Below are positions 27,480-48,224 of a stretch of DNA of 64,000 nt, piece by piece. Under the pieces are notes generated by a model. The model was not told where the DNA came from. It did no database searches and saw nothing but the letters and a program-made list of their open reading frames with translations. This stretch comes from an uncultured candidate division WWE3 bacterium (GTDB lineage: Bacteria > Patescibacteriota > WWE3 > UBA101185 > UBA10185), in contig CAIRNR010000007.1 in the NCBI GenBank assembly GCA_903879985.1, forward strand, positions 649,925 through 713,924. Reading direction: 5' to 3'. Each line of letters opens with the position of its first letter. The first letter of the stretch is position 1. Made by a program: the position numbers and the translations under genes.

Positions 27480-30059
27480 ATGATATATAGCTACATAGGT
27501 CTAATTATTCTTTCAGTTTTAGCTGTTTTATTTATTGTTTATATGAGAATTCGCAAAACATCACCTTCGGAGTCTGCAGCACCGACTATACGAAAATCAG
27601 GTGTTGAGATACTTGAAGTACGTTTAAGTCGTAATGAAGAGGAATCTAAAATTCCGGGATTTTCGGCAATGTCTGCTGAAAACATGTTTGCAGCGTTACA
27701 TGGACTATTAAAAGATGATTCTAACAATCAAGAACATATATCTTTTGAAATAGTATCATCAGGTGCGCATGGTCTTAAATTTTTTGTTGCTGTCCCACCC
27801 AATATTTTAAAATTTGTCGAATCTCAGATTTATGCCCAATATCCTACTGCGGAAATTAAAGCGGTTGAGGATTACACGCGCAGTGTAGAAGTTACCGGTG
27901 AAAAATTTGAAATTGCTACAGTAACTCTGACTAAGCCAATTTATTTTCCAATTAAAAGTTTTAGAGATTTTGAAATAGATCCCATATCCTCACTAACATC
28001 AGCCTTATCTTCGGTTGCTGGAGAAGAGGAGATATGGATTCAGTTAATGGTAAAACCTATTCCTGATGTGTGGCAAAAAGAAGGTTTTACCTATGTTAAG
28101 ACATTACGTGATGGCGGAAATCCCTCGGCCAAAAACCCGAACTTTTTCCAGACAGTACTTTCTGTTGCGGGTAAGGAAGCTGGCGCTATAGCAGCAGGTA
28201 CATTATCTAATGCATTTAAATATCCTGAACCTGTTGATACCAGAAAACCAAGTGGTGGTGCACCCTTAGCTCCAAGAATTACAGGATCTCAAGAGTTGGA
28301 ATTAAGGGCTATTGAAAATAAGCTTTCCAAAATGGCGTACGAAGTAAATATTAGAGTTTTGGCCTGTGCGCCAAGTCAAGAAAGAGTAGATAGTAATATC
28401 CGTTCCGCGCTGGCTACATTCAGACAATACTCGACTATTAACTTAAATACCTTTACATACGGTGTTTCGTCCAACCATGCGCGATTATTAAGTGATTATA
28501 AAGGTAGATGTTTTGATTCAGGGAATAGCATCGTTTTAAACACTGAAGAACTCGCGACATTTTTTCATTTCCCAACCGGTGATTCTGATACGCCAAACAT
28601 GTCTTGGGTTTACTCTCGTAAATCAGAACCACCTGCAAATCTTCCTACGGACAACTGCTGTTTTATAGGCGAAACAATGTACCGAAACAAAAGAGTTAAG
28701 TTTGGTTTACGTAACGACGATGACCGTTTACGCCATTTATATGTAATAGGGAAATCAGGTACAGGTAAATCTACATTGTTTGAGTCAATGATTACACAGG
28801 ATATTGCTAACGGTGCAGGAGTTGGTGTTTTAGATCCCCACGGTGAAACAATAGAAAAGATTTTGGATAGAATTCCAGATAATAGAGTAGAGGATGTTAT
28901 TTACTTTGATCCATCCGACGCGGAAATGCCTATTGGCTTGAATCTGCTTGAAATAGACAATCCTTCTCAAAAGAATCTTATGGCTTCTGGATTAGTAGCA
29001 GCAATTAGACAGCACTTCGATTATTCATGGGGTCCTCGTTTGGAGTATTTACTTAACTACGCAATTTTAACGCTGCTAGAAGTTCCGGGAACTAACATGT
29101 TGGGTATCACGCGTTTGCTTGAGGATAAAAATTATCAGGCATATATATTGCATTCAGTTAAAGATCCTTTAGTGGTTAAGTTTTGGGAAACCGAGTTTAA
29201 AGAAATGAAGGGTAACCAAAAACTAGTAACTGAAGCTATTTCACCAATCCAAAACAAAGTTAACAGATTTTTGGCATCTACTACTATTAGAAATGTATTA
29301 GGCCAGAGACACTCTTCCTTGGACATTGAGGACGCAATGAACTCAAGTAAGATTCTATTAATCAATTTGTCTAAAGGTAAAATAGGAGGAGATAACGCAA
29401 ACTTGTTGGGTGCCTTACTTGTGTCGCGTATTCAATTTTATGCCTTACAACGTGCCAATTTGGCCCCTGAAAAGCGTAAACCGTTCTACTTGTATGTTGA
29501 TGAGTTTCAAAACTTTGCTACCGGAAGTTTTGAGGAAATTCTATCTGAATCACGAAAATACAAACTTGGATTATATTTAACCCATCAGTTTACGGCACAG
29601 CTTCCTGAAACCTTGTTAAAAGCAGTTTATGGTAACGTTGGAACTATCATGTCTTTTTCTTTAGGTGCGCCTGATGCTAAAGAATTGGCTAACGAATTTG
29701 CTCCATATTTTACCGCTGACGATATCATTTCACTTGAACGTTTTCATGTATATATGAAGCTAATGATTGACGGTATGACATCGCATCCGTTTTCTTCCAG
29801 AATTTTGGTACCTTGGGAAGATAACTTTTTGATTAAGAAAACAGATAATAGGGAGCGCGCTATTCAACGCAGTCGTGAGAAATATGGTACGCCAAGAGAG
29901 CATGTAGAGGCTAAGATAAACAAGTGGATAGAAACTAAATTTGACAAAGGTATGGCAATTGCTCAAGAATATAAGAGTAAGAATCCTGGTCAACCAGAAG
30001 CCCCTGTAACAGACTCTGGTACTTCGGTTACAATGAACTTACCGAACTCCGGGAATTAA
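27480..30059 (+). CDS. membrane-anchored P-loop ATPase, VirD4/TraD/TraG-like (type IV secretion/DNA-translocation coupling protein family)
   Basis: N-terminal TM helix, Walker A 'VIGKSGTGKSTLFESM' and Walker B 'FYLYVDEFQNF'. The C-terminal 'HQFTAQLPETLLKAVYGNVGTIMSF' resembles a TraD/TraG C-terminal region. Confidence 0.45.
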   Translation: MIYSYIGLIILSVLAVLFIVYMRIRKTSPSESAAPTIRKSGVEILEVRLSRNEEESKIPGFSAMSAENMFAALHGLLKDDSNNQEHISFEIVSSGAHGLKFFVAVPPNILKFVESQIYAQYPTAEIKAVEDYTRSVEVTGEKFEIATVTLTKPIYFPIKSFRDFEIDPISSLTSALSSVAGEEEIWIQLMVKPIPDVWQKEGFTYVKTLRDGGNPSAKNPNFFQTVLSVAGKEAGAIAAGTLSNAFKYPEPVDTRKPSGGAPLAPRITGSQELELRAIENKLSKMAYEVNIRVLACAPSQERVDSNIRSALATFRQYSTINLNTFTYGVSSNHARLLSDYKGRCFDSGNSIVLNTEELATFFHFPTGDSDTPNMSWVYSRKSEPPANLPTDNCCFIGETMYRNKRVKFGLRNDDDRLRHLYVIGKSGTGKSTLFESMITQDIANGAGVGVLDPHGETIEKILDRIPDNRVEDVIYFDPSDAEMPIGLNLLEIDNPSQKNLMASGLVAAIRQHFDYSWGPRLEYLLNYAILTLLEVPGTNMLGITRLLEDKNYQAYILHSVKDPLVVKFWETEFKEMKGNQKLVTEAISPIQNKVNRFLASTTIRNVLGQRHSSLDIEDAMNSSKILLINLSKGKIGGDNANLLGALLVSRIQFYALQRANLAPEKRKPFYLYVDEFQNFATGSFEEILSESRKYKLGLYLTHQFTAQLPETLLKAVYGNVGTIMSFSLGAPDAKELANEFAPYFTADDIISLERFHVYMKLMIDGMTSHPFSSRILVPWEDNFLIKKTDNRERAIQRSREKYGTPREHVEAKINKWIETKFDKGMAIAQEYKSKNPGQPEAPVTDSGTSVTMNLPNSGN

Positions 30060-34753: not shown

Positions 34754-35827
34754 ATGACTAAAGTATCACTTAACTCAAACATACAGGAAGTAATCTTAAA
34801 ATATTTGGAGTATTGCGAGATCGAAAAGAACCTTTCCCAAAATACTATCAAAATGTACTTCTTTTATTTAACAGATTTTTCCACTTGGTTGCAGGGTTAC
34901 ATAAATAAAGAAATTGTTACACTTGGTGACATTAATGATGAACTTGTAAAAAAATACAGATTGGATCTGAATCGTCGTATAAGTACAAAATCTAACTCGG
35001 AATACAAGCGCTCCACACAAAAAACATTTTTAGTAGCATTACGTGCGTTTCTAAAATACTTAGTTATTGAAGAAGATGCGTCTGTTATGTCGCCGGAGCA
35101 AATAATTTTAGGTAAATCAGAAGACCGTGTGCCAAAGTTTTTAAATGACGGACAATTAGAGAAATTGGTAGATGTTCAGGACTTAAGTAAAAGATCGGGT
35201 TTACGCGATCGTTCTATACTGGAAACCTTGTTTAGTACAGGGCTTCGTGTCAGCGAGCTTGTGCATTTGAACAGAGATGACATTAATTTAGATTCAGGTG
35301 AGTTTACTGTTATAGGTAAAGGAAGAAAGGCGCGCACGGTTTATTTATCTACAGGAGCTATTAATTGGATTAAGAAATATTTGGGCACACGTTCAGACCC
35401 ATTTAAGCCCTTATTCATTAGATATTCCGGTTGTCACATGGCTGAAAAAGATTATGACGGTAATTCTATAAGACTTACATCACGAAGCGTGGAACGACTG
35501 GTAAAAAAGTATGTTGGCAAAAGCGGTATCTCGGTTGATGCCACGCCTCACACACTTCGTCATACTTATGCAACAGGATTATTACGTGAAGGTGCTGATT
35601 TAAGAAGTGTTCAAGAGCTATTAGGCCACGCAAATGTTTCTACCACGCAGATTTATACTCATGTAACCAACACTCAGCTTCGTGAAGTACATAAGAAATT
35701 TCATAAAGATATTGATGTTAAGCGGAAAAATTACGACATTGTTCCGGAAGCAGATGGCCGTAATGTTGGTGATGATGGCAAGGATACCTTAGGATCTACT
35801 AGCGACGAAGTTTCCTCTTTGATATAA
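34754..35827 (+). CDS. xerC: tyrosine recombinase, XerC/XerD family
   Basis: N-terminal SAM-like 'EKNLSQNTIKMYFFYLTDFSTWL'. Catalytic 'GLRVSEL' (Arg), 'HTLRHTYAT' (H-x-x-R) and 'LLGHANVSTTQIYTHV' (His/Tyr). Confidence 0.75.
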   Translation: MTKVSLNSNIQEVILKYLEYCEIEKNLSQNTIKMYFFYLTDFSTWLQGYINKEIVTLGDINDELVKKYRLDLNRRISTKSNSEYKRSTQKTFLVALRAFLKYLVIEEDASVMSPEQIILGKSEDRVPKFLNDGQLEKLVDVQDLSKRSGLRDRSILETLFSTGLRVSELVHLNRDDINLDSGEFTVIGKGRKARTVYLSTGAINWIKKYLGTRSDPFKPLFIRYSGCHMAEKDYDGNSIRLTSRSVERLVKKYVGKSGISVDATPHTLRHTYATGLLREGADLRSVQELLGHANVSTTQIYTHVTNTQLREVHKKFHKDIDVKRKNYDIVPEADGRNVGDDGKDTLGSTSDEVSSLI

Positions 35828-36653: not shown

Positions 36654-37316
36654 CTAAAGTAGCATTGATCTGATAGGTTCAAAGCTTTTGCGGTGGATTT
36701 CGCAAATGCCGTGAGCCTTAATAGCGTCCATATGTGCCTTAGTTCCGTAGCCTTTATGTTTATCAAAGCCGTATTCCGGGTATTTGTCGTGAAGTTCACA
36801 CATTTTTCTGTCTCTATAAACTTTAGCAATTATCGATGCCGCGGCAATGGTCATGCTTTTTGAGTCTCCTTTAGCCATAAACGACTGGTTGTCGTGGGTA
36901 ATTTTTTTGATTTCAAAGCCGTCTACTAAAACATGTTGAGGCTTAACTTTTAGGTTTGTCACAGCTTGGTAAAAAGCTTCTTGAGTTGTTTTTGAAATGC
37001 CCCATTCGTCCAATTGAGTTACAGGTATTTCAATAATAGAGTAACTGACAGCGTTTTCGATGATAAATTTAGACAATATTTCTCTATTTTTTTCGGTTAC
37101 TTTTTTGGAATCGTTGATTAGTTTGTATAGTCCGAAATTTTGATGTGGGACGTCGTTAAACGTAAATTCGGCGCTCAGCAGCTTTTCCAAGTCCAAAATA
37201 ACAGCTGCTGCCACAAACGGTCCAGCCAATGGTCCCCTACCCACTTCATCAACTCCTGCAATAAATTTTATGCCTCGTGCAAATAATTCTCTTTCATAAG
37301 ATAACAAATCATTCAT
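36654..37316 (-). CDS. rnhB: ribonuclease HII
   Basis: 'FIAGVDEVGRGPLAGPFVAAAVIL' matches the DEVGRG active-site motif. Confidence 0.85.
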   Translation of the reverse strand: MNDLLSYERELFARGIKFIAGVDEVGRGPLAGPFVAAAVILDLEKLLSAEFTFNDVPHQNFGLYKLINDSKKVTEKNREILSKFIIENAVSYSIIEIPVTQLDEWGISKTTQEAFYQAVTNLKVKPQHVLVDGFEIKKITHDNQSFMAKGDSKSMTIAAASIIAKVYRDRKMCELHDKYPEYGFDKHKGYGTKAHMDAIKAHGICEIHRKSFEPIRSMLL

Positions 37317-37348: not shown

Positions 37349-38320
37349 TTATTCAGCGTCTTTAGCAAAAAGGACTTTTGCCATCTTTGCTAATCTTCGG
37401 CGGCCTTTGTAGATTACAGCTCCGAATAGTGATAGTACTAGCAAAATTGCGCCTGCAGCTCTGTATGGAAACATAAAAAAAGATGTACTGCTGGTTAGCA
37501 TTTGGTTATTATCGCCGTAAACCATAGAAATGGTGGCTGTAAATTTACCAATGGCCCATGGTTGATCCCATGTTCCGTAAAGGTTTCGTGTAGCACTTGG
37601 TAAAATATTTTTTTGTGTAATTTCAACTGTTGCTACTTTTTGACCGAAAAAGTTTGTGATTGTAATTCCACCTGTTGGTTTAATATGGACGGTACTGTCA
37701 TTTTTGACTTGAGCTTCAAAACCAACTGGTCCGTATTCAAATAATTTTTTGGTTGACGTAAATGTGGAAATAGATGCAGTTTCGTTAACAGAACCTGCGA
37801 CTCGTAACAATACTAATGCTGCTACTTCCTGTGATAATGTTGCACCCGTTGCTTTCATCCCTTGTGGGGCTTTAGTTCGGAAAATTATTGCACCATAATA
37901 GCCGCCCGGCTCGGCATTTTGAGGAATATTTATTCTAAAACCAATTAATCTACTAGTTTTAGCTGTAATAGGCGCAACATCTTTGCTTTCTTCGATCCAT
38001 GTTGCTAGTGAGAAACTATTTTCTTCATCTGATAACCCTACAGCTCCTTCGTCGCCCTTTGCGGTAAAGTTCTTTTTATCCAGCTCTATACCTAAATCAG
38101 CGTCAGTGAGGTTGTCAACTCTAATAGTATTATTTAAGGTGTCGCCTGGATTACCTGTGAGTTCAAATACTGGTGGGGATATAGCAATACCTTGTGTGGT
38201 CTGCGCACTAACTGCTTTTCCACAAGCAGTTGTTGCGACAAGAACTAACAATGTAATGGTGAAAGCAGTTATTTTATTTACTGTTGCCGTTTTTCTCAGC
38301 ATTTGTGTCCATTCTAGCAT
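37349..38320 (-). CDS. secreted/anchored surface protein, paralog of 39432..40448 (N-terminal signal/lipobox-like, C-terminal TM anchor)
   Basis: 'NAEPGGYYGAIIFR' and 'IKPTGGITITN' are shared with the paralog. C-terminal TM plus basic tail '...KGRRRLAKMAKVLFAKDAE'. Resembles DUF916/DUF3324-type proteins of Firmicute WxL loci; this is a tentative call. Confidence 0.5.
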   Translation of the reverse strand: MLEWTQMLRKTATVNKITAFTITLLVLVATTACGKAVSAQTTQGIAISPPVFELTGNPGDTLNNTIRVDNLTDADLGIELDKKNFTAKGDEGAVGLSDEENSFSLATWIEESKDVAPITAKTSRLIGFRINIPQNAEPGGYYGAIIFRTKAPQGMKATGATLSQEVAALVLLRVAGSVNETASISTFTSTKKLFEYGPVGFEAQVKNDSTVHIKPTGGITITNFFGQKVATVEITQKNILPSATRNLYGTWDQPWAIGKFTATISMVYGDNNQMLTSSTSFFMFPYRAAGAILLVLSLFGAVIYKGRRRLAKMAKVLFAKDAE

Positions 38321-38331
38321 TACTTATTTCT

Positions 38332-39414
38332 TTAGTACATTGGGACTGCAGTGAGGATCACAGATGTGGTATATGAACCTGCTTTTGTAGTACCAGAGAT
38401 ACCTATTTGATATCCAATTCTAGTTACATCGCTAGAAACTGGTGCTATGCTGTGTGCTACTTCTACTCCCGTAGTCGTAAAGGCTGCCCATTTATTACTG
38501 TTAAACCTTGCTGCCGTTCCTGCTAATGATGTAGAGGAAGTTGTGTAACCAAAACCTTCGGTACCTGCCGCTGTAAATGCTGTAGGTGTGGCATTAGAAC
38601 CTGCAAAGTCAGCTATAGTGTTTGTACCACTTGTTAAAGCACCCGAATATCTTGTGTAAACTGTATAACCCGAACCTGCGTTTGTGACTACGGTCATATC
38701 ATGTGCTGCAATTGCATTAGCGCCTGATGTAACTGTACCAAATGGAATCGTAGTTGGAGTAGTTGTTACGGTTGTAGTAGCACTGTTGACAGTGGAACCC
38801 GAGGCAATTGCTGAAATTGTAAATGTAAGTGCAGGATCTACTGTTAGAGAAACTGACTGACCTGTTGTGTATTGGTAAGCTAATACAGTTGAATCTACAG
38901 GACTGGTGGCGCAGTCAGTGTTGTTGTATGTGTTGAACTTAACGAAATAAGTTGTTCCGGCTGTGGAAGCATTTGTAATACCACTTAATACAACTGTTCT
39001 TCCTGTGGCGCCTGCTGGTGTCTCACCAGATGCGAAAGTTATTTTAATGGTACCGTTTGTAGAACCTGATGCTGCCCAGCTACCTGGTGTAGGAATATAA
39101 GTTGAAGTACCAACTAAAGCAACTGAATTTGTGTTAATACCACTTGGTGCTGCAGAACCAGCTGCGGTTGTTGAAAAAACAAGTTGAATACATTTAATTG
39201 CTGATGTTGTGACGTTATCAAATGTGCCTGTATATGTAACATTTGCGGTTGAAGGTCGTGAATCAGTTAAATTGATTCCACCATTTGTAAGAACGGAAGC
39301 TTTTGCTACGATTGCATTATTTGCTAATAAAATAAATGCGGCTAACGATAAGACTAAATTTAAAACTACGAATCTTTTTATATTTTTATTTATTTTTTTA
39401 TACATGGCAGACAT
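38332..39414 (-). CDS. secreted Thr/Ser/Gly-rich surface protein with C-terminal module shared with the giant protein
   Basis: Signal peptide. The last ~90 aa, 'EGFGYTTSS...IGYQIGISGTTKAGSYTTSVILTAVPMY', are homologous to the C-terminus of 40420..45459. Confidence 0.5.
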   Translation of the reverse strand: MSAMYKKINKNIKRFVVLNLVLSLAAFILLANNAIVAKASVLTNGGINLTDSRPSTANVTYTGTFDNVTTSAIKCIQLVFSTTAAGSAAPSGINTNSVALVGTSTYIPTPGSWAASGSTNGTIKITFASGETPAGATGRTVVLSGITNASTAGTTYFVKFNTYNNTDCATSPVDSTVLAYQYTTGQSVSLTVDPALTFTISAIASGSTVNSATTTVTTTPTTIPFGTVTSGANAIAAHDMTVVTNAGSGYTVYTRYSGALTSGTNTIADFAGSNATPTAFTAAGTEGFGYTTSSTSLAGTAARFNSNKWAAFTTTGVEVAHSIAPVSSDVTRIGYQIGISGTTKAGSYTTSVILTAVPMY

Positions 39415-39431
39415 TTTCTTTTTTAAATCAA

Positions 39432-40448
39432 TTACTTTTGTTGTGCGTTATCCTTTTCAAAAAGGACAGCGACAGCTTTTCGGAACCTATCTTTTTTAAT
39501 TATGATAAAACGTATTAGTAAAGTCAATGGCAAGACTGAAAGCAAAAATGGGAAAAGAGGAAATACCCAAAAAATAATCTCTCTTTGAATTTTTATTTTG
39601 CTGTTCCCTGCTTCTAAATCAAGGTTAAGACGGTATTTTCCCGGAAACATTTTTTTAGTTATTAATGAAATTATTTCTGTCTTTTCAGTTTGAGGTAGAA
39701 CTATTTTTGAAGGAATTTGTTCGTTAAAAATTATTTTTCCCGTAATTAAGTTTGTGATGGTTACGTTTCCTGTCGGAATTATGTGAATATTTCCCGGATT
39801 TTGGAAGGTTACGTTCATTTCGTTTGGGCCGAAGCTCGTAAAATTACTTATTTGCACATTTGTTAGGTTTAATCTTTCGTTTATATCACCGGGGGCGGTT
39901 AAAAAAATCAAAACCCCTACCCTACTCGTTATGTAGGTTTTCTTTCCTTCGTCTGTTGGGTTTTCCGGAGTGACTGGTTGAAAAAAGATTGTACCGTAAT
40001 GGCCACCAGGCTCTGCATTTTCAGGCATATTAATTGTTACAGTAATCTTTTTTGATTCACCTGGGTTAATAATAAAGTCCGCAGGTTCCAGTTTAATCCA
40101 CGAAGACGCGTCGTACATGCTTCGGGCGTTTATAGGAATACTTTCGTCAGCGTAAAAGTTTTTAGCTGATGCCTTTATTGGTAAAGGAAATGGGTTAACG
40201 TTGTATACCAAAATCTCGGCGGTGTTAACTTTTTTTGGCACTAAATTCATTTCGATGATTGCGGGAGAAACTCCAAATGTGACTTGATCTTTTATGTCTT
40301 GGAGTTGCAAGGTTTGGGCGTTTGCTTTTGGCGTATGTGGCAATAGCAATAATACATATGTTGTTATGCCTAAAATTATTGCGACAACCATTGTTTTCTT
40401 ATTCAAAATATTTTTCATCTTAATAAGAAGGCGTGACCGTATAAACAA
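39432..40448 (-). CDS. secreted/anchored surface protein, paralog of 37349..38320
   Basis: 'NAEPGGHYGTIFFQ' and 'IIPTGNVTITN'. C-terminal TM plus tail '...KKDRFRKAVAVLFEKDNAQQK'. Confidence 0.5.
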   Translation of the reverse strand: MFIRSRLLIKMKNILNKKTMVVAIILGITTYVLLLLPHTPKANAQTLQLQDIKDQVTFGVSPAIIEMNLVPKKVNTAEILVYNVNPFPLPIKASAKNFYADESIPINARSMYDASSWIKLEPADFIINPGESKKITVTINMPENAEPGGHYGTIFFQPVTPENPTDEGKKTYITSRVGVLIFLTAPGDINERLNLTNVQISNFTSFGPNEMNVTFQNPGNIHIIPTGNVTITNLITGKIIFNEQIPSKIVLPQTEKTEIISLITKKMFPGKYRLNLDLEAGNSKIKIQREIIFWVFPLFPFLLSVLPLTLLIRFIIIKKDRFRKAVAVLFEKDNAQQK

Positions 40449-43400
40449 TTACAGTTGTGTATGCACCGGTCATTTGAATAGCGTCCGTTTTTACTTGGTA
40501 AGTGATTGTAAAGTTATCGGTTACGGGACTACCGGTTACACCTGTATCATGGTCGGCAACAATATCTCCAGGTGCTGTTGATGAGAAAGGTGCGTAACAT
40601 GCACCACTATTTCCTCCTGGGCATGTGGCACTATTAAACTTATTTGCTCCTTGAATACTTGTGTCCGAAGAATTATAACCGAATCCCCTATCCCCTGTTA
40701 GCCAACCGTCGGGAGCTGCATAAGTTCCTCCATTAAAATCTGGAATTGTATAAATTGGATTTGCTGAAGATGTAAGTGGAGTTGTTTCGTACGCTTTTAT
40801 TACATAGCCGTTGTAGGCGTTGGTGGTTGTAGTTAAGGTTGTGGTTTTAGTATCGTTGAAGCTGTTTGTAGTACCAAGGTTTGAAAAAGTTACAGTTGTT
40901 GGTGACACTGTAAAAGTTAAGGATGGCGCTACAAGTTGGCCATTAGAAGATACTATTGCCGAATTTCCTGCGTTATCTACGGCACGCACGTTAAAGAAAT
41001 ACATCTGTGCGGTTCTAAGTGTAAGACTGGTTGCCGTAACCGACGTGTTTGTTGAGTTTGATGTCCAAGTTAATATATCTGTGCCGCCTGCGGATGATCC
41101 AATGGAGTAATCATAGCGTGATAGTCCAGAAACTGTAGCAACAAAGCCGTCCCAGTTGGCTGATAAACTAGATAGTGAACCATCGTTAAATGCTGCGTCT
41201 ATACCTGCGGCGGTGCCATCATAAACTGTGCCTCCGGTTGGAGCTGTGGAGTCTATTCCAAAGTCGCTGGCACTTTCGGCGTTACCCCCGTAGGCTACCC
41301 ACGAAGAATAAAGTCCTCCAGAATCCTTGGTGCGCGCTTGCCAGTGGTACTCCGTAGCGTCTGTAAGTCCACTTAGCGTTTGGTCTAGGCTTACGCCCGA
41401 ACCTGCAGATGCCGTACCAACAGCATTACAGCTTGTTTCAACATTTGTAAATGGCGTGCCCAAAGGTTGTGCTTCTATACATAGGTAAAGTGTGTCGGGA
41501 TTGTCTGGATCAGAACCTGATGCAGTAAATTTCATAGACGTCGTGTTGTTCCAGCTGCCTGTGGAAATTACCGAGTTAGTTGTGGTTTCCTGAATAAGTG
41601 TTGTTGGCGCGTTTGGTGCTTGGTTTGCTTTTACGAGCGTGGTGGTGCCGGCTAATTCAACGGATGCCGCAGGTTGTGCGTGTCCGTAGTCCAACAGTAT
41701 ATCGGTTGTTGAGTTCATATCGCTTAATTTTATAGTCTCATTGTTTGCAGTATTATTTGTGATATCTAAAACTGTATATACACATGTAGGAGATGAGTTT
41801 ACGGGCATATTTCCCGTTAATGTTGTTTTCTCCGTACCTAAGTATCCAGGATCTCCAAATGTTCCTGGTGTTGAATTAAACAATGTTTCATTTCCGTTGT
41901 AGTTACATGGCGAATCTTGATCATAATAAATATTTACATTAGCCAGCCCTGAACCGGCAACCACAGTTCCTGTGTCAGTTAACTTAATTCTAGTAACGTA
42001 TGCAGATCCTTGATCTAGCGTATATATAAAAGGAGCTCCTATATATGTATTGGTTGAAGGTACGTTTATAGTCGCGACCTGTGATCCTGAAGTTGTGACA
42101 TTGAGTTGTGCGTTATAACGTAAGTAGCGCATGGACATCAAAGCAAAATCAATATCACTAACATTAGGTGCTGATGTAAGTGTACTTATGGATGTTCTTA
42201 CACGCATGTTGCTTATTCCATCAATGGTATCAACATATACTGCAGGTGTTGTTTGAGGTCTGGCGAGTATCCAAGTATCAAACCATGCATACGCGGCTGT
42301 TGCATTTGTATCTGTACCTGGTGTGTTCGCCCATCCTGATGTTCCTTGTACGCCAGAGAAGTCTCTAAGTTGTACATCTTGTGTCATGGCAGTGTTGTTA
42401 GAATGATATTTAATTGCATAGTGCATCGCTGTAATAGACCCGTTCGATGCTACGTTCATTGGAAATGATAAGTTAGAAGATACCGCGTATTCTCCATTTA
42501 CAGTATCGTCATCATTATCAAGCGCATAAAAAGTTGCAGGATATTCTACAACAGCAGTCCTTTGCCATGTTGATGTAGTGGGGTTTACTGTTTTACCCTC
42601 CTTTGTATCTCTGGTGTTACTGCAGTCCGTAGTGGTTCCAGTTCCCCATGAAATTTCGCATTGCGCAGTATTTGTATTTGTCGAACCAGCTATCATATAA
42701 ATACGGTCAAAAACTAGGTTATATTTAGTTCCCGGTCCATTCGTTAAAAATCTTACCGTTACATCTCCTTGTGGGCTAATATAGTCACTAATGTTAAAAC
42801 CACCTATCGTTGTGCCGTTGAATGCGTATGCATACTCAACGTCAGCTGTAGTACCAGTAAAATTAGTACTTAACTGTGTCCAACTTGACGTGGTGTAGTT
42901 TCTTAAATAAACTCCGTATGTTAATGCTACATTAGAAACGTTCATCTCCGGAATAACTACAAAAGTATTCATACCCGGATACGTCTTTACATTGTTAAAG
43001 GTGAACTGCACATCTACCGGCTGTGAACTTGCCGGCATTGGAATTGTTAATCTGTTGTTATCGGAGCCATTTACTCCTGTGGACACGCCTCCAACTAAAT
43101 CAGAGATATAACCTGTCGGTGTACTTCCTGCTGCTATGGTCATGTCTCCAACCTCATAAATTGGATCTACACCAACCTCCACTTGTACGTTATCTAATCT
43201 ATGTTGTGTCGTGGAAGCTACTGTTGAATAAACTCTTAAAAGTAATGATCCTCCTATAACAAAATTAATTAATGGCGTTCGAACAACTGTTCCTGGTACC
43301 GATGTACGTGTTGAAAAATAGCCATCATATACTTCGTAAAGTCTTGCAGTAACCGTTGTATTAACATAATCAACTTTGCGTGGTTGCAATGTTCTCCATC

Positions 43401-45459
43401 CTCCTCCGGTACAGTCAGAATCTGCAGGGGCGTCTACACCTGTGGGGTCTTGCCAGTCGCATATTTGATGCGTGTAAGCGTCTCCAGTTGTAATATCTGA
43501 ATCGGTAATACTAATTAGCAACTTATTAATACCCTGTGGTATATCATAGGTATTTTGATACTGTGTATCTATCCCGTCTACATAAATTAATTTATTTAGT
43601 CCTCCAGGATTTGATCTTGCTGATATCCAATAGTTAGTATCTGCACCAAGTAGCGCTTTCCAGGATCCCGTATTAGTGTTGTCCGTTGCTACCTCAGATC
43701 CGGTGCGTAATATTCCGTTGGTAGGTTGAAAGCCCCTTCTTACGGTGACTTTATTAGGTTCTTCCACCCAACGAATACTCATCATGGCAAAAGCCCAGCT
43801 TCGATTGTTTGTCGCGGTAACGTTTGTACTGGCAGATGTTCTTAAACGCATGTTCATCAGGTTATTACCCGTATCTATAGAATCTTCCGGTGATGTTGTG
43901 ATTTCAGCGTTTACCCAGCTGTCTGTCCAGCCATATACTGTCGCTGAGGCGTTTGTATCTGTTGCAGGAGTACTTACCCAGCCCGATGTTCCTGATAATC
44001 CATAATAGTCACGAATTTGAGGATCAACTGTTTCTGTTGAGATATTAGATCTGTATTTTGCCGCATAAAGTATACCTGTAACGGATATCATGTGGCCAAG
44101 CCCTGTTGTTCTAATGGGAAATGAAATATTTTGAGATGCTGCGTATTCTCCATTATTTGCATCGTCATCATTATCAAGTGAGTAATATGAGCTGGGGTAT
44201 TCTAGTGTGGAACCTGCTTGCCATGTTGACACTGAAGGTGCTACTGTTTTACCCTCTTTTACAGTTGTTGTATTATAGCAATCTGTTGCAGTTCCAGTTC
44301 CCCATGAAATTTCGCATTTCGACGTGTCGGCGTTTACAGATCCCATCATCATATAAATGCGGTCAAATGAAATAGTATACTTTGAGGCGGGCGCATTTGT
44401 TAGAAATCGTATTGATACATTTCCGCTGGCACTTATATAGTCTGAAAGACTAAACCCTGGTATAGCGGTGTCATTAAATGCGTACACATACTCAACATCA
44501 GCAGCAGTTACCGTAAAGTTTGTTCCTCCCAATTGTGTCCACGTAGAGTTTGAATAATTTCTTATATATACGCTGTATGTAAGTGCAACATTTGACACCT
44601 TAATTTCCGGAGAAACTAATATCGTGTTCATTCCCGGGTATGTCTCTACGCCATTAAATGTAAATTGAATGTCTGCTGCATTTCCTGCTGAGGGCATAGG
44701 AATTGTTAATGAGTTATTATCTGATGCGTTTAAGTTGGTCGAAACAGCGCCAACCAAGTCAGAAATATAACCAGTTGGTGTACTACCTGCAGCGATATTA
44801 TAACCCCCTACTTCGTAATTTGGGTCAATGGCAACTTCCAACTGTACCCAGTCAAGTTTATGTAAGGTTGTTGATGCCACAGTGGAATAAACTCTAATCA
44901 TTACTCTGTTGTTTTGTGAAGCGTCTATAAAGTTAGTTAGTGGTGTGCTGACTACTGTTCCCGGTACGGAGGTACGTGTTGAGAAATAACCATCATATAT
45001 TTCGTAAGTTCTGGTTACATCTGCAGTACTTGTATAGTCAACTCTACGTGGTTGTAATGTTCTCCATCCTCCTGTGGTGCAATCGGTGTCGGCTACTGCG
45101 TCCACTCCAGTTGAATCAGACCAGTCGCATATCTGATGTGTAAATGCGTCTGCAGTGGTGGTGTTACTATCATCGATGGTCAATAGAAGTTTGTTAGCTC
45201 CCATTAACGCAACGCCATCAATATAAATAATTTTATTTAATCCTCCAGGATTTGACCTTGCTGTTATCCAATAATTTGAATCGTTTCCTAATGTACCTTT
45301 CCAGTCGCCTGTATTATCGGAACCTGTGGCAATAGGTGTACCCATTCTAAGTGCCCCACCAGTTGGGGGGAATACTGAAGCCGCATAAGTCTTTCCAAAA
45401 GAAAAAGTAATCCAGACCAAACACATGATAATAAAAGATAATATTTTAAATTTACTCAT
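40420..45459 (-). CDS. giant secreted surface protein (1679 aa) with tandem ~545-aa internal duplication, FN3-like region and shared C-terminal module
   Basis: Signal peptide 'MSKFKILSFIIMCLVWITFSFGKTYAAS'. Repeats cover aa 31-578 and 579-1119 at about 60% identity. The 'TEYHWQARTKDSGGLYSSW' segment is FN3-like. The C-terminus is '...TGAYTTVIVYTVTPSY'. Confidence 0.6.
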   Translation of the reverse strand: MSKFKILSFIIMCLVWITFSFGKTYAASVFPPTGGALRMGTPIATGSDNTGDWKGTLGNDSNYWITARSNPGGLNKIIYIDGVALMGANKLLLTIDDSNTTTADAFTHQICDWSDSTGVDAVADTDCTTGGWRTLQPRRVDYTSTADVTRTYEIYDGYFSTRTSVPGTVVSTPLTNFIDASQNNRVMIRVYSTVASTTLHKLDWVQLEVAIDPNYEVGGYNIAAGSTPTGYISDLVGAVSTNLNASDNNSLTIPMPSAGNAADIQFTFNGVETYPGMNTILVSPEIKVSNVALTYSVYIRNYSNSTWTQLGGTNFTVTAADVEYVYAFNDTAIPGFSLSDYISASGNVSIRFLTNAPASKYTISFDRIYMMMGSVNADTSKCEISWGTGTATDCYNTTTVKEGKTVAPSVSTWQAGSTLEYPSSYYSLDNDDDANNGEYAASQNISFPIRTTGLGHMISVTGILYAAKYRSNISTETVDPQIRDYYGLSGTSGWVSTPATDTNASATVYGWTDSWVNAEITTSPEDSIDTGNNLMNMRLRTSASTNVTATNNRSWAFAMMSIRWVEEPNKVTVRRGFQPTNGILRTGSEVATDNTNTGSWKALLGADTNYWISARSNPGGLNKLIYVDGIDTQYQNTYDIPQGINKLLISITDSDITTGDAYTHQICDWQDPTGVDAPADSDCTGGGWRTLQPRKVDYVNTTVTARLYEVYDGYFSTRTSVPGTVVRTPLINFVIGGSLLLRVYSTVASTTQHRLDNVQVEVGVDPIYEVGDMTIAAGSTPTGYISDLVGGVSTGVNGSDNNRLTIPMPASSQPVDVQFTFNNVKTYPGMNTFVVIPEMNVSNVALTYGVYLRNYTTSSWTQLSTNFTGTTADVEYAYAFNGTTIGGFNISDYISPQGDVTVRFLTNGPGTKYNLVFDRIYMIAGSTNTNTAQCEISWGTGTTTDCSNTRDTKEGKTVNPTTSTWQRTAVVEYPATFYALDNDDDTVNGEYAVSSNLSFPMNVASNGSITAMHYAIKYHSNNTAMTQDVQLRDFSGVQGTSGWANTPGTDTNATAAYAWFDTWILARPQTTPAVYVDTIDGISNMRVRTSISTLTSAPNVSDIDFALMSMRYLRYNAQLNVTTSGSQVATINVPSTNTYIGAPFIYTLDQGSAYVTRIKLTDTGTVVAGSGLANVNIYYDQDSPCNYNGNETLFNSTPGTFGDPGYLGTEKTTLTGNMPVNSSPTCVYTVLDITNNTANNETIKLSDMNSTTDILLDYGHAQPAASVELAGTTTLVKANQAPNAPTTLIQETTTNSVISTGSWNNTTSMKFTASGSDPDNPDTLYLCIEAQPLGTPFTNVETSCNAVGTASAGSGVSLDQTLSGLTDATEYHWQARTKDSGGLYSSWVAYGGNAESASDFGIDSTAPTGGTVYDGTAAGIDAAFNDGSLSSLSANWDGFVATVSGLSRYDYSIGSSAGGTDILTWTSNSTNTSVTATSLTLRTAQMYFFNVRAVDNAGNSAIVSSNGQLVAPSLTFTVSPTTVTFSNLGTTNSFNDTKTTTLTTTTNAYNGYVIKAYETTPLTSSANPIYTIPDFNGGTYAAPDGWLTGDRGFGYNSSDTSIQGANKFNSATCPGGNSGACYAPFSSTAPGDIVADHDTGVTGSPVTDNFTITYQVKTDAIQMTGAYTTVIVYTVTPSY
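42103..43725 (-). repeat. intragenic tandem repeat unit 2 of the giant surface protein (approximate bounds)
   Basis: aa 579-1119 'PTNGILRTGS...NPGGLNKLIYVDG...DNDDDTVNGEYA...'. Confidence 0.6.
43726..45369 (-). repeat. intragenic tandem repeat unit 1 of the giant surface protein (approximate bounds)
   Basis: aa 31-578 'PPTGGALRMG...NPGGLNKIIYIDG...DNDDDANNGEYA...' aligns along its whole length to unit 2. Confidence 0.6.
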
Positions 45460-46129
45460 TTGTAATACTCAATTTTCCGTCAATAAATTGAACGTCGTAT
45501 ATTACGTTTTTCATTTCGATTTTTGTTGGTACATCGCTGTTCTCCATTGATTGTGAGAATGTTGTGTTATTTACAAGATCTACTCCGATAAGTGACTTAT
45601 TGTCATTTGAAGGGAAAATTAGTGTGTCGCTGTTTAATGCTTCAATTGGCGAGTTATCTGGTAAGTCTAAAACAGTTTGCATTGCCCACGTAAGTTCCGA
45701 ATTCTTTTCCCAAAGCTGGGCTTTATCTAAACCTTTTTTTATTATGCACGGGTCGTTGTTGGCTACAACAAAAACGCATTGTGTAATATCAAAGTTAGGA
45801 TCTTGGCTGTTATTTGAAATCACAGTGCTATCAATAACTCTTGTTGGTGCATCAATTGTTAGGTTGTCTAAGGCTGAGCGATCTATTATTTCGGGGGCGG
45901 CTGTTGCTGTAGTTTCTGATGTTTGTTGTACGTCTGTTGCTGAAAGCACGTCGCCAGCTGTGGGATTAGCTGAAGAAGTAGACTCACTTGTTTCCTGCGT
46001 GGCGTTTTCTTCTTGGGCGTAAACAATACCAATACCTGCAACAACAAACACAACACTCACAAGTATTAAAAAAGCAGGTATATAAATTTTAATTCTACTC
46101 ATTGTTTTCTTAGTATTAGTTTCTCCCAC
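45452..46129 (-). CDS. signal-anchored secreted hypothetical protein (225 aa)
   Basis: An N-terminal TM helix is followed by Thr/Ser-rich and Asn-rich segments. It overlaps both neighbours. Confidence 0.4.
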   Translation of the reverse strand: MGETNTKKTMSRIKIYIPAFLILVSVVFVVAGIGIVYAQEENATQETSESTSSANPTAGDVLSATDVQQTSETTATAAPEIIDRSALDNLTIDAPTRVIDSTVISNNSQDPNFDITQCVFVVANNDPCIIKKGLDKAQLWEKNSELTWAMQTVLDLPDNSPIEALNSDTLIFPSNDNKSLIGVDLVNNTTFSQSMENSDVPTKIEMKNVIYDVQFIDGKLSITNE

Positions 46130-47169
46130 ACATTTAAAATCATTGTATCTATTTGAACAAGTTTATCTATTAGTCTATCTATAATATCTTTCTTTGGCTG
46201 GGGTGTCTCAGCATTAAACATAAAATCTTTGGTGAACTGTTTAGTTGTTTCTGCGCCCAATATATTATTTGAATCATGGGTTACGTCGTAAAATTCCATG
46301 CGAGTTGTTGAATTTGGTGAGGCTAGTTGGCTTTCGGTTTCTCCCCTCTTTTGCATAACACCCATAACTGCAGCATTGCTTGACTCACTTACTGGTGTTT
46401 CAGAAATAAAGTATGCAATTGTGGCAAAATCTTTAAGAACATTTGTGCCCTTACCATCGTTGGCTAGTACTGCTGAGGTTGGCATGTATTTAACTTTTGT
46501 TATTCCAGGGGCTTTGGCTTTAAAATAAATTGTGGCAAAATCACCTGCAGCATCAACATATCCCGGATTTGGTACGCCGCCTATTAGTTGGATATACCCT
46601 GCCTCATTGTCTACGTCGTTTTGAATAAAAATTGTGGCAAAAGAATTGTCTGTTACAACTTTTACAACTTCCAATGTTTTAGGGTCAAAGCTTATATCGG
46701 TTTTAACAACATTAACAGGAACTTTAATTTGAGTAATTTTTACATCCAGAGGAAATATTGCGCCCAAAGATATATCTTGTTTTGCGGGTAGTACAAAGAA
46801 AGCTGTCTTTTCTGCGGGTACCTGTGCGTTTTTAAATATTGTAACTATCTTGATTTCCAAAAAAACAAACCCGATAGAAAAGGCTGACATCACTAGGATA
46901 AGTAAAGCATTCCCGAATGCTGAGCGCAGTGTCGCCGGATTGCTAATTACTTCTTTTTCGCGAACGCGTCCGCAAACAAAACATTTGTTCCCTATTTTTG
47001 TTGTGCGGCACATCAAACACATTTCTTGTTCTGGGAAAATCAGCATCCAAATTGGATAAGCAAATGCAATGATTGGACCAAATACTGCCATTGCATGGAT
47101 AATCACCCACGATACAAGTGCTAATATCAAAAGTCGTATTAATTTAAAAGCGTCATCAATAAATTTCAT
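46099..47169 (-). CDS. membrane protein with zinc ribbon between two TM helices and a beta-rich extracytoplasmic domain
   Basis: 'CLMCRTTKIGNKCFVCG' is a CxxC-x9-CxxC ribbon flanked by hydrophobic helices. The C-terminal ~250 aa are beta-rich ('DFATIYFKAKAPGITKVKY'). Confidence 0.45.
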   Translation of the reverse strand: MKFIDDAFKLIRLLILALVSWVIIHAMAVFGPIIAFAYPIWMLIFPEQEMCLMCRTTKIGNKCFVCGRVREKEVISNPATLRSAFGNALLILVMSAFSIGFVFLEIKIVTIFKNAQVPAEKTAFFVLPAKQDISLGAIFPLDVKITQIKVPVNVVKTDISFDPKTLEVVKVVTDNSFATIFIQNDVDNEAGYIQLIGGVPNPGYVDAAGDFATIYFKAKAPGITKVKYMPTSAVLANDGKGTNVLKDFATIAYFISETPVSESSNAAVMGVMQKRGETESQLASPNSTTRMEFYDVTHDSNNILGAETTKQFTKDFMFNAETPQPKKDIIDRLIDKLVQIDTMILNVWEKLILRKQ

Positions 47170-48224
47170 CTATTTATATAGTATAGGGTAATCGAAAGGT
47201 CAATCAAGTTACATACGCCATCATTGTTGATATCGCAGTCTTTTGTTTCTCCGGCTCTCCACCCTGTTACCCAAGTTTTTACGACTTCGTATACTTCTGT
47301 GATTTCAATTTTATGGTCACCGTTTCTGTCGAGGTGTGGAAATAATTTTACAAGTGGATTGATATATGGCGTTGGTGTTGGTGCTTCCTGTGCAATTTGC
47401 TCGGCGGTTAGTGCTTCAGCTGTTGTCGGCGTAGGCGTTGGATTATCGGGGACTGTTTCTTCCTCGTCGTGATGAGGCGTTGGAGTCGGCGTAGGAGATG
47501 GTAATGGATTATTTATTTTTAAATACACTGCCCTACTCGTTTCGCTGTTGTATGTTTGGTATTCAGTTATCGCATTTATTGTATTAGTAGCCAAATAACC
47601 GGGAATAGATTTTGTGTCTATAGCTAAACTCCATGTTCCGTCGCTTCCCGAAGGTATTGCCCCAAAAATTGTGCCGTTGATAAAAACTGTAACGTTAGCA
47701 TTAGGTACGGTGGCACCACTGACGCTTGCGCTGTCACCATAAGTAGTTTCTGCTAAATCAATTCTTATGGTTGGTGGTAATACAATGTTGTTGATTGTTT
47801 CATCCAAACCAGGTTGTGTGGCTATGCTGTAATTAATTGTGGGAGTTGTTAAAAAGTTTGGGTCTGTTTCATACATACTTATATATTGAATGTCGCTGTC
47901 AAAGCCCGAAAATGATTTTGAAAAATTTCCATCAGCATCCGTAGTTGTAGTCCCGATAGTGCTTCCATTTTGCACAAAAGTAACAACGGAAAGTGGTGCG
48001 CCTTTTCCGTTAAATATGATATTTGAAGAACCAACTCTTACTGTTAAATTTATTTGTGTTTCGGCTCTTGCTCTTCCCAGTGTGAAAGCTAATAGCAGCA
48101 CTACAATTGCAACCACTGGTATAACATAAAAGCTTCTGTGGGCCATTGCACTAATCTTATAATTTTTAGTTGGATTATTCCAGATTCTCTGCGATTTCAA
48201 ACTCTTCTTTTGCGAGCATTGCAA
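47166..48224 (-). CDS. secreted protein with Ig-like/CarboxypepD_reg-like repeats, Pro/Thr linker and C-terminal dockerin-like Ca-binding repeats
   Basis: Signal anchor. 'DADGNFS' and 'SDGTWS' beta-sandwich repeats. Linker 'PSPTPTPTP'. C-terminal duplicated 'DRNGDHKIEITE' and 'DINNDGVCNLIDL' follow the D-x-N-x-D-G pattern. Confidence 0.5.
   Translation of the reverse strand: MQCSQKKSLKSQRIWNNPTKNYKISAMAHRSFYVIPVVAIVVLLLAFTLGRARAETQINLTVRVGSSNIIFNGKGAPLSVVTFVQNGSTIGTTTTDADGNFSKSFSGFDSDIQYISMYETDPNFLTTPTINYSIATQPGLDETINNIVLPPTIRIDLAETTYGDSASVSGATVPNANVTVFINGTIFGAIPSGSDGTWSLAIDTKSIPGYLATNTINAITEYQTYNSETSRAVYLKINNPLPSPTPTPTPHHDEEETVPDNPTPTPTTAEALTAEQIAQEAPTPTPYINPLVKLFPHLDRNGDHKIEITEVYEVVKTWVTGWRAGETKDCDINNDGVCNLIDLSITLYYINR

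Follow-up and report, generated by a model that had tools for sequence, protein, structure and literature searches.

What brings the same domain to the end of two otherwise unrelated secreted proteins? The question is raised by a 64-kb stretch of DNA (hereafter the window; 64,000 nucleotides, contig CAIRNR010000007.1 of assembly GCA_903879985.1, positions 649,925 to 713,924) from an uncultured candidate division WWE3 bacterium. In this window, four consecutive genes on the minus strand (37349-45459) encode, in this order, a giant protein of 1679 amino acids (aa), a 338-aa protein, a Thr-rich 360-aa protein and a 323-aa protein, the 338-aa and 323-aa products being membrane-anchored paralogs. 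The original prediction, made from the sequence of the window, was that the giant and the 360-aa protein share a C-terminal module of about 90 aa with a sorting, surface-anchoring or partner-binding role comparable to that of WxL domains, and that the two anchored paralogs may recognize it. We find that the module belongs to the family of the C-terminal domain of Pam pilins, and we consider it probable that the four genes form a pam-type pilus operon of a Candidate Phyla Radiation (CPR) bacterium, with the module as the polymerization domain, the anchored paralogs as chaperones, and the giant most likely as a distal adhesin. CPR bacteria are obligate epibionts, and their host recognition is largely unknown.

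A C-terminal module of the Pam pilin family

Comparison of the two proteins using BLASTP with compositional adjustment aligned aa 1510-1679 of the giant with aa 192-360 of the 360-aa protein (31% identity, 23% gaps, E = 1e-9), and yielded no further significant similarity between the rest of the two sequences. Both peptides originally quoted are present and truly similar, on proteins that are otherwise unrelated as claimed; the length, however, has to be revised to about 170 aa, twice the reported 90, because the alignment spans both of these intervals in full. The module includes a conserved strand, P-x-L-x-F-x-V, which lies upstream of the part first noticed. The interval originally assigned to it, 38335-40692, runs from the last codon of the 360-aa protein to the last 90 codons of the giant and thus also encloses the unrelated gene for the 338-aa protein. 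In its place we delineate two copies, both on the minus strand. Copy 1 (38335..38856, aa 187-360 of the 360-aa protein) comprises a linker or donor strand, a Thr-rich insert and the Pam pilin C-terminal domain, as delimited by the BLASTP alignment with the giant, the family alignment and the match to NCBIfam model NF058581 described below; copy 2 (40423..40962, aa 1500-1679 of the giant), delimited by the match to the same model, structure prediction and alignment, comprises a P-S-L-T-F-T-V strand followed by the same domain, and lacks the Thr-rich insert. No other open reading frame (ORF) of the window carries the module (reciprocal phmmer E ~1e-5 between the two proteins; next match E >= 0.08).

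The module recurs widely, and always at the end of a protein. Jackhmmer searches of 55 related loci, whether started from one copy or the other, converged on one set of 117-119 ORFs, and in all 119 the module ended no more than 8 residues from the C-terminus (exactly at the C-terminus in 104). When the module profile was searched against 1.84 billion cluster representatives (clusters at 50% identity), it matched 2601 clusters at E <= 1e-3, 1154 at E <= 1e-10 and 313 at E <= 1e-30. In each of the 150 best matches the module formed the extreme C-terminus, on proteins of up to 4014 aa, mostly 1000-4000 aa; giant proteins that end in the module number in the hundreds, and the passenger regions fused to it are very diverse. 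The profile search that had been proposed as a check thus revealed wide recurrence, across protein clusters, of a defined domain, as opposed to a generic low-complexity strand. Nine alignment columns are invariant across both subfamilies of the module, which differ in the segment between the conserved strand and a T-N-A-x-x-G-Y motif: members of the pilin subfamily carry a Thr-rich insert of 17-24 aa there (median spacing 51), whereas those of the giant subfamily have no such insert (spacing 34 in 15 of 17, the giant of the window among them). The two proteins end in ...TAVPMY and ...TVTPSY, neither has a hydrophobic segment at its C-terminus, and neither carries the LPXTG sorting signal with hydrophobic tail that characterizes sortase-assembled Gram-positive pili.

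The identity of the module follows from NCBIfam models, on which the link to Pam rests. The 360-aa protein matched NF058581 (CPR_Pam_pilin_C, Pam pilus system pilin subunit) at aa 220-360 over positions 3-148 of the 148-position model (E = 9.8e-8, 32.2 bits), and the last 180 residues of the giant matched positions 5-148 (E = 1.4e-6, 28.5 bits). Of 109 members of the jackhmmer family that holds both copies, 77 matched NF058581 (best E = 4.3e-44) and 16 matched NF058579, the model of the pilus component PamT; none of the window proteins scanned matched the latter. Judged by this transitive relation through a shared family, both modules are homologous to the Pam pilin domain family, and it is these matches that lead us to regard the locus as a pam-type pilus operon. 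Searches of PDB sequences with the pilin-family and module-only profiles returned nothing relevant.

Pam pili were described in 2026 from cryo-EM structures of thin filaments of Ca. Mycosynbacter amalyticus (bioRxiv 10.64898/2026.03.03.709456). According to this preprint, PamA and PamB are two-domain pilins in which a nine-strand beta-sandwich is joined through one linker strand to a truncated C-terminal domain of the Ig-like type, whose open barrel takes up the linker strand of the neighboring subunit by donor-strand exchange; it is the linker that is donated, and no region of the pilins is more conserved, while the C-terminal domain is retained in the mature filament. PamC and PamD are chaperones of the FimC/PapD-like type, with two domains and a transmembrane (TM) helix at the C-terminus, and are predicted to cap the barrel before strand exchange; PamT (C-terminal domain only) is the proposed tip, and PamR, RbmA-like with a pair of FnIII domains and a TM segment at its C-terminus, is the proposed membrane-anchored terminator.

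The 360-aa protein (38332..39414, minus strand) has the plan of such a pilin and is PamB-like: a signal peptide that is its sole hydrophobic segment, an N-terminal beta-sandwich, followed by a linker strand and by the C-terminal pilin domain. We found 307 homologues, nearly all of about 355 aa and with 50-60% identity. An AlphaFold2 (AF2) model based on the family alignment (predicted local distance difference test, pLDDT, 90.3) shows a signal-peptide helix, a beta-sandwich at aa 45-181, a low-confidence connector, a strand at aa 196-202 and a second beta domain at aa 234-358, that is, the PamA/PamB domain plan as far as the model goes. The N-terminal domain (aa 40-181, 38872..39297), its strands at residues 45-181 predicted with pLDDT >90, and the linker strand LTFTISA (aa 196-202, 38809..38829) lie on the same strand of the DNA; the latter is placed between the two domains by AF2, falls within the conserved V-D-P-x-L-x-F-x-V and is the candidate donor strand. 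V192, D193 and F198 are nearly invariant in the pilin family.

The 1679-aa protein (40420..45459, minus strand), a candidate fiber-borne (tip) adhesin ending in a pilin domain, likewise has a hydrophobic segment at the N-terminus only (signal peptide) and no C-terminal TM segment. Its last 300 residues have 57 homologues, in which they are attached to different N-terminal regions. The AF2 model of these 300 residues (pLDDT 91.6, predicted TM-score 0.82) shows an FnIII-like domain, at aa 1514-1519 a strand homologous to that of the pilin, and then a C-terminal domain as in the pilin; what follows the FnIII domains is thus the strand and the C-terminal domain, with no N-terminal domain of the pilin type. 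In both proteins, therefore, the structure prediction originally suggested as a check gave a folded beta domain. Just upstream of the module, aa ~1290-1504 (40948..41592) form two FnIII/Ig-like domains, recognized from alignment and from the beta-sandwich at residues 29-125 of the AF2 model; there are weak Pfam Ig matches at aa 1466-1508, and fn3/Ig Pfam matches in homologues. Further upstream, a unit of ~525 aa is duplicated in tandem (aa 44-566 and 591-1114, 42118..45330; BLASTP 61% identity over 532 columns). This presumed binding region has conserved Cys pairs and no Pfam annotation. The N-terminal 1290 aa of the giant recur in 2 of the 55 loci and its C-terminal module in 27, which, at the level of sequence comparison, makes the former hypervariable and the latter conserved.

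The probable membrane-anchored partners and their WxLIP relatives

The two genes that accompany those of the giant and the pilin encode proteins in which a signal peptide is followed by two Ig-like domains and, at the C-terminus, a TM segment, the architecture of PamC and PamD. The 338-aa protein (39432..40448, minus strand; hydrophobic segments at aa 17-40 and 290-319) belongs to the lineage found after the giant; that of the 323-aa protein (37349..38320, minus strand; hydrophobic segments at aa 16-38 and 281-306) is the one that comes after the pilin. Among loci of the giant type, the chaperone after the giant was 338-like in 14 of 14 cases and the chaperone after the pilin was 323-like in 18 of 18, which ties each chaperone lineage to one substrate. 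Given the published Pam model, in which the chaperones are predicted to insert a strand into exactly this domain, and the pairing of lineages, the two anchored paralogs are the most likely direct partners of the module. Of the roles originally suggested for the module, partner binding is thereby favored; a sorting signal or wall anchor is not, since a Pam pilin domain stays in the filament.

The same two proteins also fit the architecture of Firmicutes WxLIPs, which have a signal peptide, two Ig-like domains, a C-terminal TM segment and a length of ~320-380 aa (PMC10599100), and several comparisons show that this likeness reflects homology. In Pfam searches, the 338-aa protein matched WxLIP_HBD (E = 3e-4) and WxLIP_PGBD (E = 8.7e-4), and the 323-aa protein matched WxLIP_PGBD (E = 8.8e-4); these scores, 19.7-21.2 bits, do not reach the gathering cut-offs of 27.3 and 28.9. 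Of 80 members of the chaperone family, 45 matched PF06030 at E <= 0.01 (best 1.4e-8). The best PDB matches of the chaperone-family profile were EfmWxLIP1 chains (9i25_C and 9i1y_A, E = 1.2e-4), and no PapD or FimC chain was among its matches at E <= 10. Alignment of the family (80 sequences) with eight plasmid-borne Firmicutes WxLIPs using hhalign gave a probability of 98.7% (E = 4.2e-16) over 224 columns across both domains, whereas a reversed-sequence control remained at noise level (P = 0.016). We regard the homology of the window-type chaperones with WxLIP as firm on these sequence comparisons. Neither WxL nor DUF916 is mentioned in the Pam preprint (bioRxiv 10.64898/2026.03.03.709456).

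The likeness to WxL systems that had been proposed for the module itself is a different matter. None of the 109 module-bearing proteins matched the Pfam WxL family (PF13731) at E <= 0.1, and none of the window proteins did so at E <= 1. The W-x-L motifs are absent from the module, which has G-Y-x-V and V-I-Y/L-T where WxL domains have G-W-x-L and V-W-x-L. An hhalign comparison of the module with a WxL alignment exceeded every control (P = 0.002, probability 8-14%), with the similarity confined to the last 20-27 C-terminal columns, where A-G-x-Y-T-T-T-V-I-Y-T of the module corresponds to A-x-T-Y-T-T-T-I-V-W-N-L of WxL. Three or four collinear motifs seen by eye found no support in a block-permutation test, in which 46 of 110 permutations reached the real global score, and for this reason we do not claim homology between module and WxL domain. 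Weak matches were nevertheless enriched in both directions: module-bearing proteins made up 19 of the top 30 matches of the WxL profile among 2893 CPR ORFs (P = 4e-20), and among 154 Firmicutes ORFs, the top 15 matches of the module profile included 6 WxL proteins (P = 0.002). A number of these alignments stay in register, and shared Thr-rich composition could contribute to the enrichment. By the tests run, the module is not a WxL domain, its resemblance to one being limited to the C-terminal strand motif. The proposed likeness therefore holds at the level of the system, in which the partners are homologous and the cluster logic is the same, and has weak evidence at the level of the module.

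Fiber assembly, surface display or sorting

In the mechanism that we propose on the basis of the published Pam model, the module would be an Ig-like beta-barrel that is truncated and leaves a groove open, with the conserved strand P-x-L-x-F-x-V before it. All four proteins would be exported by Sec; the chaperones, held in the membrane by their C-terminal helix, would cap the groove of the newly exported module with a strand of their own, the 338-aa chaperone serving the giant and the 323-aa chaperone serving the pilin. The linker strand of a pilin would then displace the strand of the chaperone, such that a non-covalent fiber of 360-aa subunits grows from its base. Because the last 170 residues of the giant are the same domain, the giant could be built into this fiber, most likely as its first, distal subunit, comparable to FimH, PapG or CfaE, where it would display ~1300 variable residues, including the two 525-aa repeats and the FnIII domains, for host binding.

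The operon resembles that of the Pam pilus in the C-terminal pilin domain family, the two-domain plan of the pilin, the Sec signal peptides on all components, the pair of paralogous chaperones, each with two domains and a TM helix at the C-terminus, the absence of an usher and the CPR host. It differs in gene content: the Pam pilus has the pilins PamA and PamB together with PamC, PamD, PamT, PamE and PamR, whereas the window has a single pilin in the order giant, chaperone, pilin, chaperone (G-C-P-C), and the place of the small single-domain PamT is taken by a 1679-aa protein that ends in a pilin domain and has kept a linker-like strand. Chaperone-usher pili (Fim/Pap; FimH, PapG, CfaE) offer a likeness in working, with Ig-like pilin domains that remain incomplete until a donated strand fills them, groove-capping chaperones of two domains and, as proposed for the giant, adhesins in which a binding region is fused N-terminally to a pilin domain. 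They differ in having an usher, an outer membrane and a donor strand located in an N-terminal extension, as opposed to the anchored chaperones and the candidate donor in an inter-domain linker found here in the absence of usher and outer membrane, and no scanned protein of the window, the module family or the chaperone family, its 80 members included, matched the PapD_N, PapD_C or Fimbrial families of Pfam.

Several observations weigh against a pam-type pilus. Both copies of the module in the window miss the curated cut-off of NF058581 (55 bits), and filaments are known solely from Ca. M. amalyticus, a distant relative. None of the seven window neighbors scanned is a PamR-like terminator or anchor with two FnIII domains and a C-terminal TM segment. 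In Foldseek searches of PDB, both AF2 models found only generic tandem-Ig, MSCRAMM, integrin and Fab matches with a TM-score of ~0.2, and no Pam or WxL structure, in a library that contains no Pam structure; in favor of the pilus, the chaperone-usher tip adhesin CfaE (6k73_D) was a weak match for both the pilin and the tail of the giant. Finally, the giant lacks the 17-24-aa post-strand insert of the pilins although it has kept the conserved strand, and without this insert the strand could fill the groove of the giant in cis, at variance with a simple tip subunit that acts only as an acceptor.

An alternative that deserves weighing is that the locus displays its proteins without building a fiber, the module being a divergent WxL-like domain and the WxLIP homologues its anchors, which would keep both the giant and the small protein on the cell surface by non-covalent binding, as proposed for the WxL clusters of Firmicutes. 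Such a cluster encodes a WxLIP (DUF916-DUF3324-TM) together with two WxL proteins, a small one and a large one whose WxL domain is C-terminal (PMC10599100). Their composition is indeed matched by the large and small module proteins and the TM-anchored partners of the window, with a C-terminal domain of ~170 aa shared between large and small secreted proteins and one partner per substrate (PMC10599100; PDB 9i25). AlphaFold predicts the insertion of a DUF916 strand into the WxL domain (PMC10599100), comparable to that of a chaperone strand in the Pam model, and the C-terminal strand motifs are similar; the solved complex 9i25 contains a 'WxL domain surface protein' (chain A) and EfmWxLIP1 (chain C). 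The homology of the partners, the shared strand motif, the reciprocal enrichment of weak matches and the lack of a pilin-type insert in the giant would all accord with such display, and the giant on its own might be displayed in this way alongside pili formed by the 360-aa protein. Peptidoglycan binding is, however, the role presumed for WxL proteins, which are not known to polymerize, whereas the module is a domain of a pilin family, some members of which match a model built from pilins seen in cryo-EM filaments; the clusters usually combine one WxLIP with an LPXTG protein, as opposed to two chaperones here. Moreover, the Pfam WxL family and the W-x-L motifs are missing from the module, its profile-profile signal comes down to one strand that the permutations do not extend, and the enrichment may reflect Thr-rich beta composition common to both groups. 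We thus consider display without polymerization an unlikely account of the locus.

A far smaller chance attaches to the module being a C-terminal sorting or secretion signal that is recognized by an export or attachment machinery and then removed or buried, like the C-terminal domain of the type IX secretion system (T9SS), LPXTG or PEP-CTERM. Its strictly terminal position in every protein examined, its aromatic last residue and the great diversity of its passengers are what such a signal would show. Yet the module is a folded beta domain of about 165 aa predicted with pLDDT >90, it has neither LPXTG nor a hydrophobic tail, its homologue is part of the mature filament in PamA and PamB, and Pfam searches of the neighbors scanned revealed no sortase or T9SS-like genes. 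The idea that two beta-strand tails rich in Thr and Ser resemble each other by chance or through composition, which the Thr content of both proteins and an identity of 31% with 23% gaps might bring to mind, is refuted by an E-value of 1e-9 obtained despite compositional adjustment, the convergence of searches from both copies, the nine invariant columns, the 1154 clusters at E <= 1e-10 and the noise-level scores of the reversed-sequence controls. Assembly of the module into pam-type fibers therefore remains the reading that we prefer.

Most of what is seen at this locus is explained by the Pam system. Beyond its published description are the widespread operon variant with a giant candidate adhesin, giant module-bearing proteins not being mentioned in the text of the preprint (bioRxiv 10.64898/2026.03.03.709456), and the homology of the chaperones with WxLIP. 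With the latter, the hypothesis that Pam pili and WxL clusters share an origin becomes concrete and testable. We tentatively suggest, while considering it doubtful at present, that the two are branches of one ancient usher-less, chaperone-assisted surface-fiber or adhesin system of bacteria that have no outer membrane, in which WxLIP would be a membrane-anchored chaperone and not an adhesin that inserts into host membranes, the WxL domain would be a divergent strand acceptor of the pilin type, and the 'large' proteins of both branches, including the 1679-aa giant, would be adhesins that join via that domain. If so, WxL proteins would polymerize, or at least be held, by strand complementation. 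Enterococci, listeriae and lactobacilli carry WxL clusters that have been associated with virulence and adhesion, and for which we know of no established mechanism; the homology of the chaperones connects these widespread clusters with a pilus resolved by cryo-EM and offers the WxL field the hypothesis of chaperone-like strand complementation, which can be checked on the 9i25 structure. If giants attach to Pam fibers via their pilin domain, they would be obvious candidates for determinants of host specificity, and metagenomes allow such candidates to be listed directly, with 313 clusters or more at E <= 1e-30, mostly of proteins 1000-4000 aa long.

Related loci and neighboring genes

The arrangement of chaperone genes on both sides of the pilin gene is kept in 45 of the 55 loci, and the full G-C-P-C order, with a giant of 1000-3000 aa in the first position and a pilin of ~360 aa, is found in ~20. 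In loci labelled Saccharimonadia there are several pilins, and two chaperones enclose a module-bearing protein of 460-560 aa. Some of these 460-560-aa proteins (L018:5931-7514, L023:11826-13517 and others) match NCBIfam TafC, three proteins in all among the 109 family members (best E = 4e-15), which, at the level of sequence, hints at a wider bacterial-archaeal family of strand-donating pilins. The Tat-fimbriae or bundling pili of haloarchaea (TafA, TafC, TafE; PMC11821415, PMC12337348) are, like the Pam type, strand-donation filaments on cells without an outer membrane; they differ in their export by Tat, and the window proteins themselves do not match TafC.

No PamE-like gene was recognized in the window, and no usher-like gene among the neighbors scanned. 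Upstream of the giant on the minus strand lie genes for a 356-aa membrane protein (46099-47169) with a cohesin-like domain (PF00963, E = 6e-4), two N-terminal hydrophobic segments and a CxxC...CxxC stretch, and for a secreted protein of 352 aa (47166-48224) in which Big_6 Ig domains and a Pro/Thr linker precede a dockerin/EF-hand-like C-terminus (PF00404, E = 3.8e-3). Homologues of the cohesin-like and dockerin-like proteins adjoin the pam-like operon in 17 and 26 of the 55 loci, respectively, usually downstream of it and not upstream as in the window. The pair is possibly associated with the pilus, and could be a two-piece membrane anchor that replaces PamR. The N-terminal strand V-S-L-x-V-G-D-T-x-L-T-F of the 352-aa protein was considered as a terminating donor strand and rejected, as it is simply the first strand of a Big_6/CarboxypepD_reg-like domain. 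Between this pair and the giant, a gene for a 225-aa protein (45452-46129, minus strand) overlaps the start codon of the giant by 8 nucleotides; the protein has a hydrophobic segment at its N-terminus and an acidic region rich in Ser/Thr, and has no homologue in any of the 55 loci.

Farther away, an 859-aa membrane-anchored protein (27480-30059, plus strand), which has the NTPase motif GKSGTGKS of the Walker type, resembles a coupling protein of type IV secretion (TraD/VirD4-like). The operon is followed directly downstream by genes for a tyrosine recombinase (XerC/D-like, 357 aa; 34754-35827, plus strand) and RNase HII (36654-37316, minus strand), and independent contigs with an identical pilin show the same two neighbors. 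Several of the operon loci L005, L006, L013, L020, L041-L049 and L053 are located in metagenome-assembled genomes labelled Gammaproteobacteria, Pseudomonadales, Clostridia, Acidimicrobiia or Limisphaerales, labels that likely reflect mis-binned CPR contigs or wrong taxonomy.

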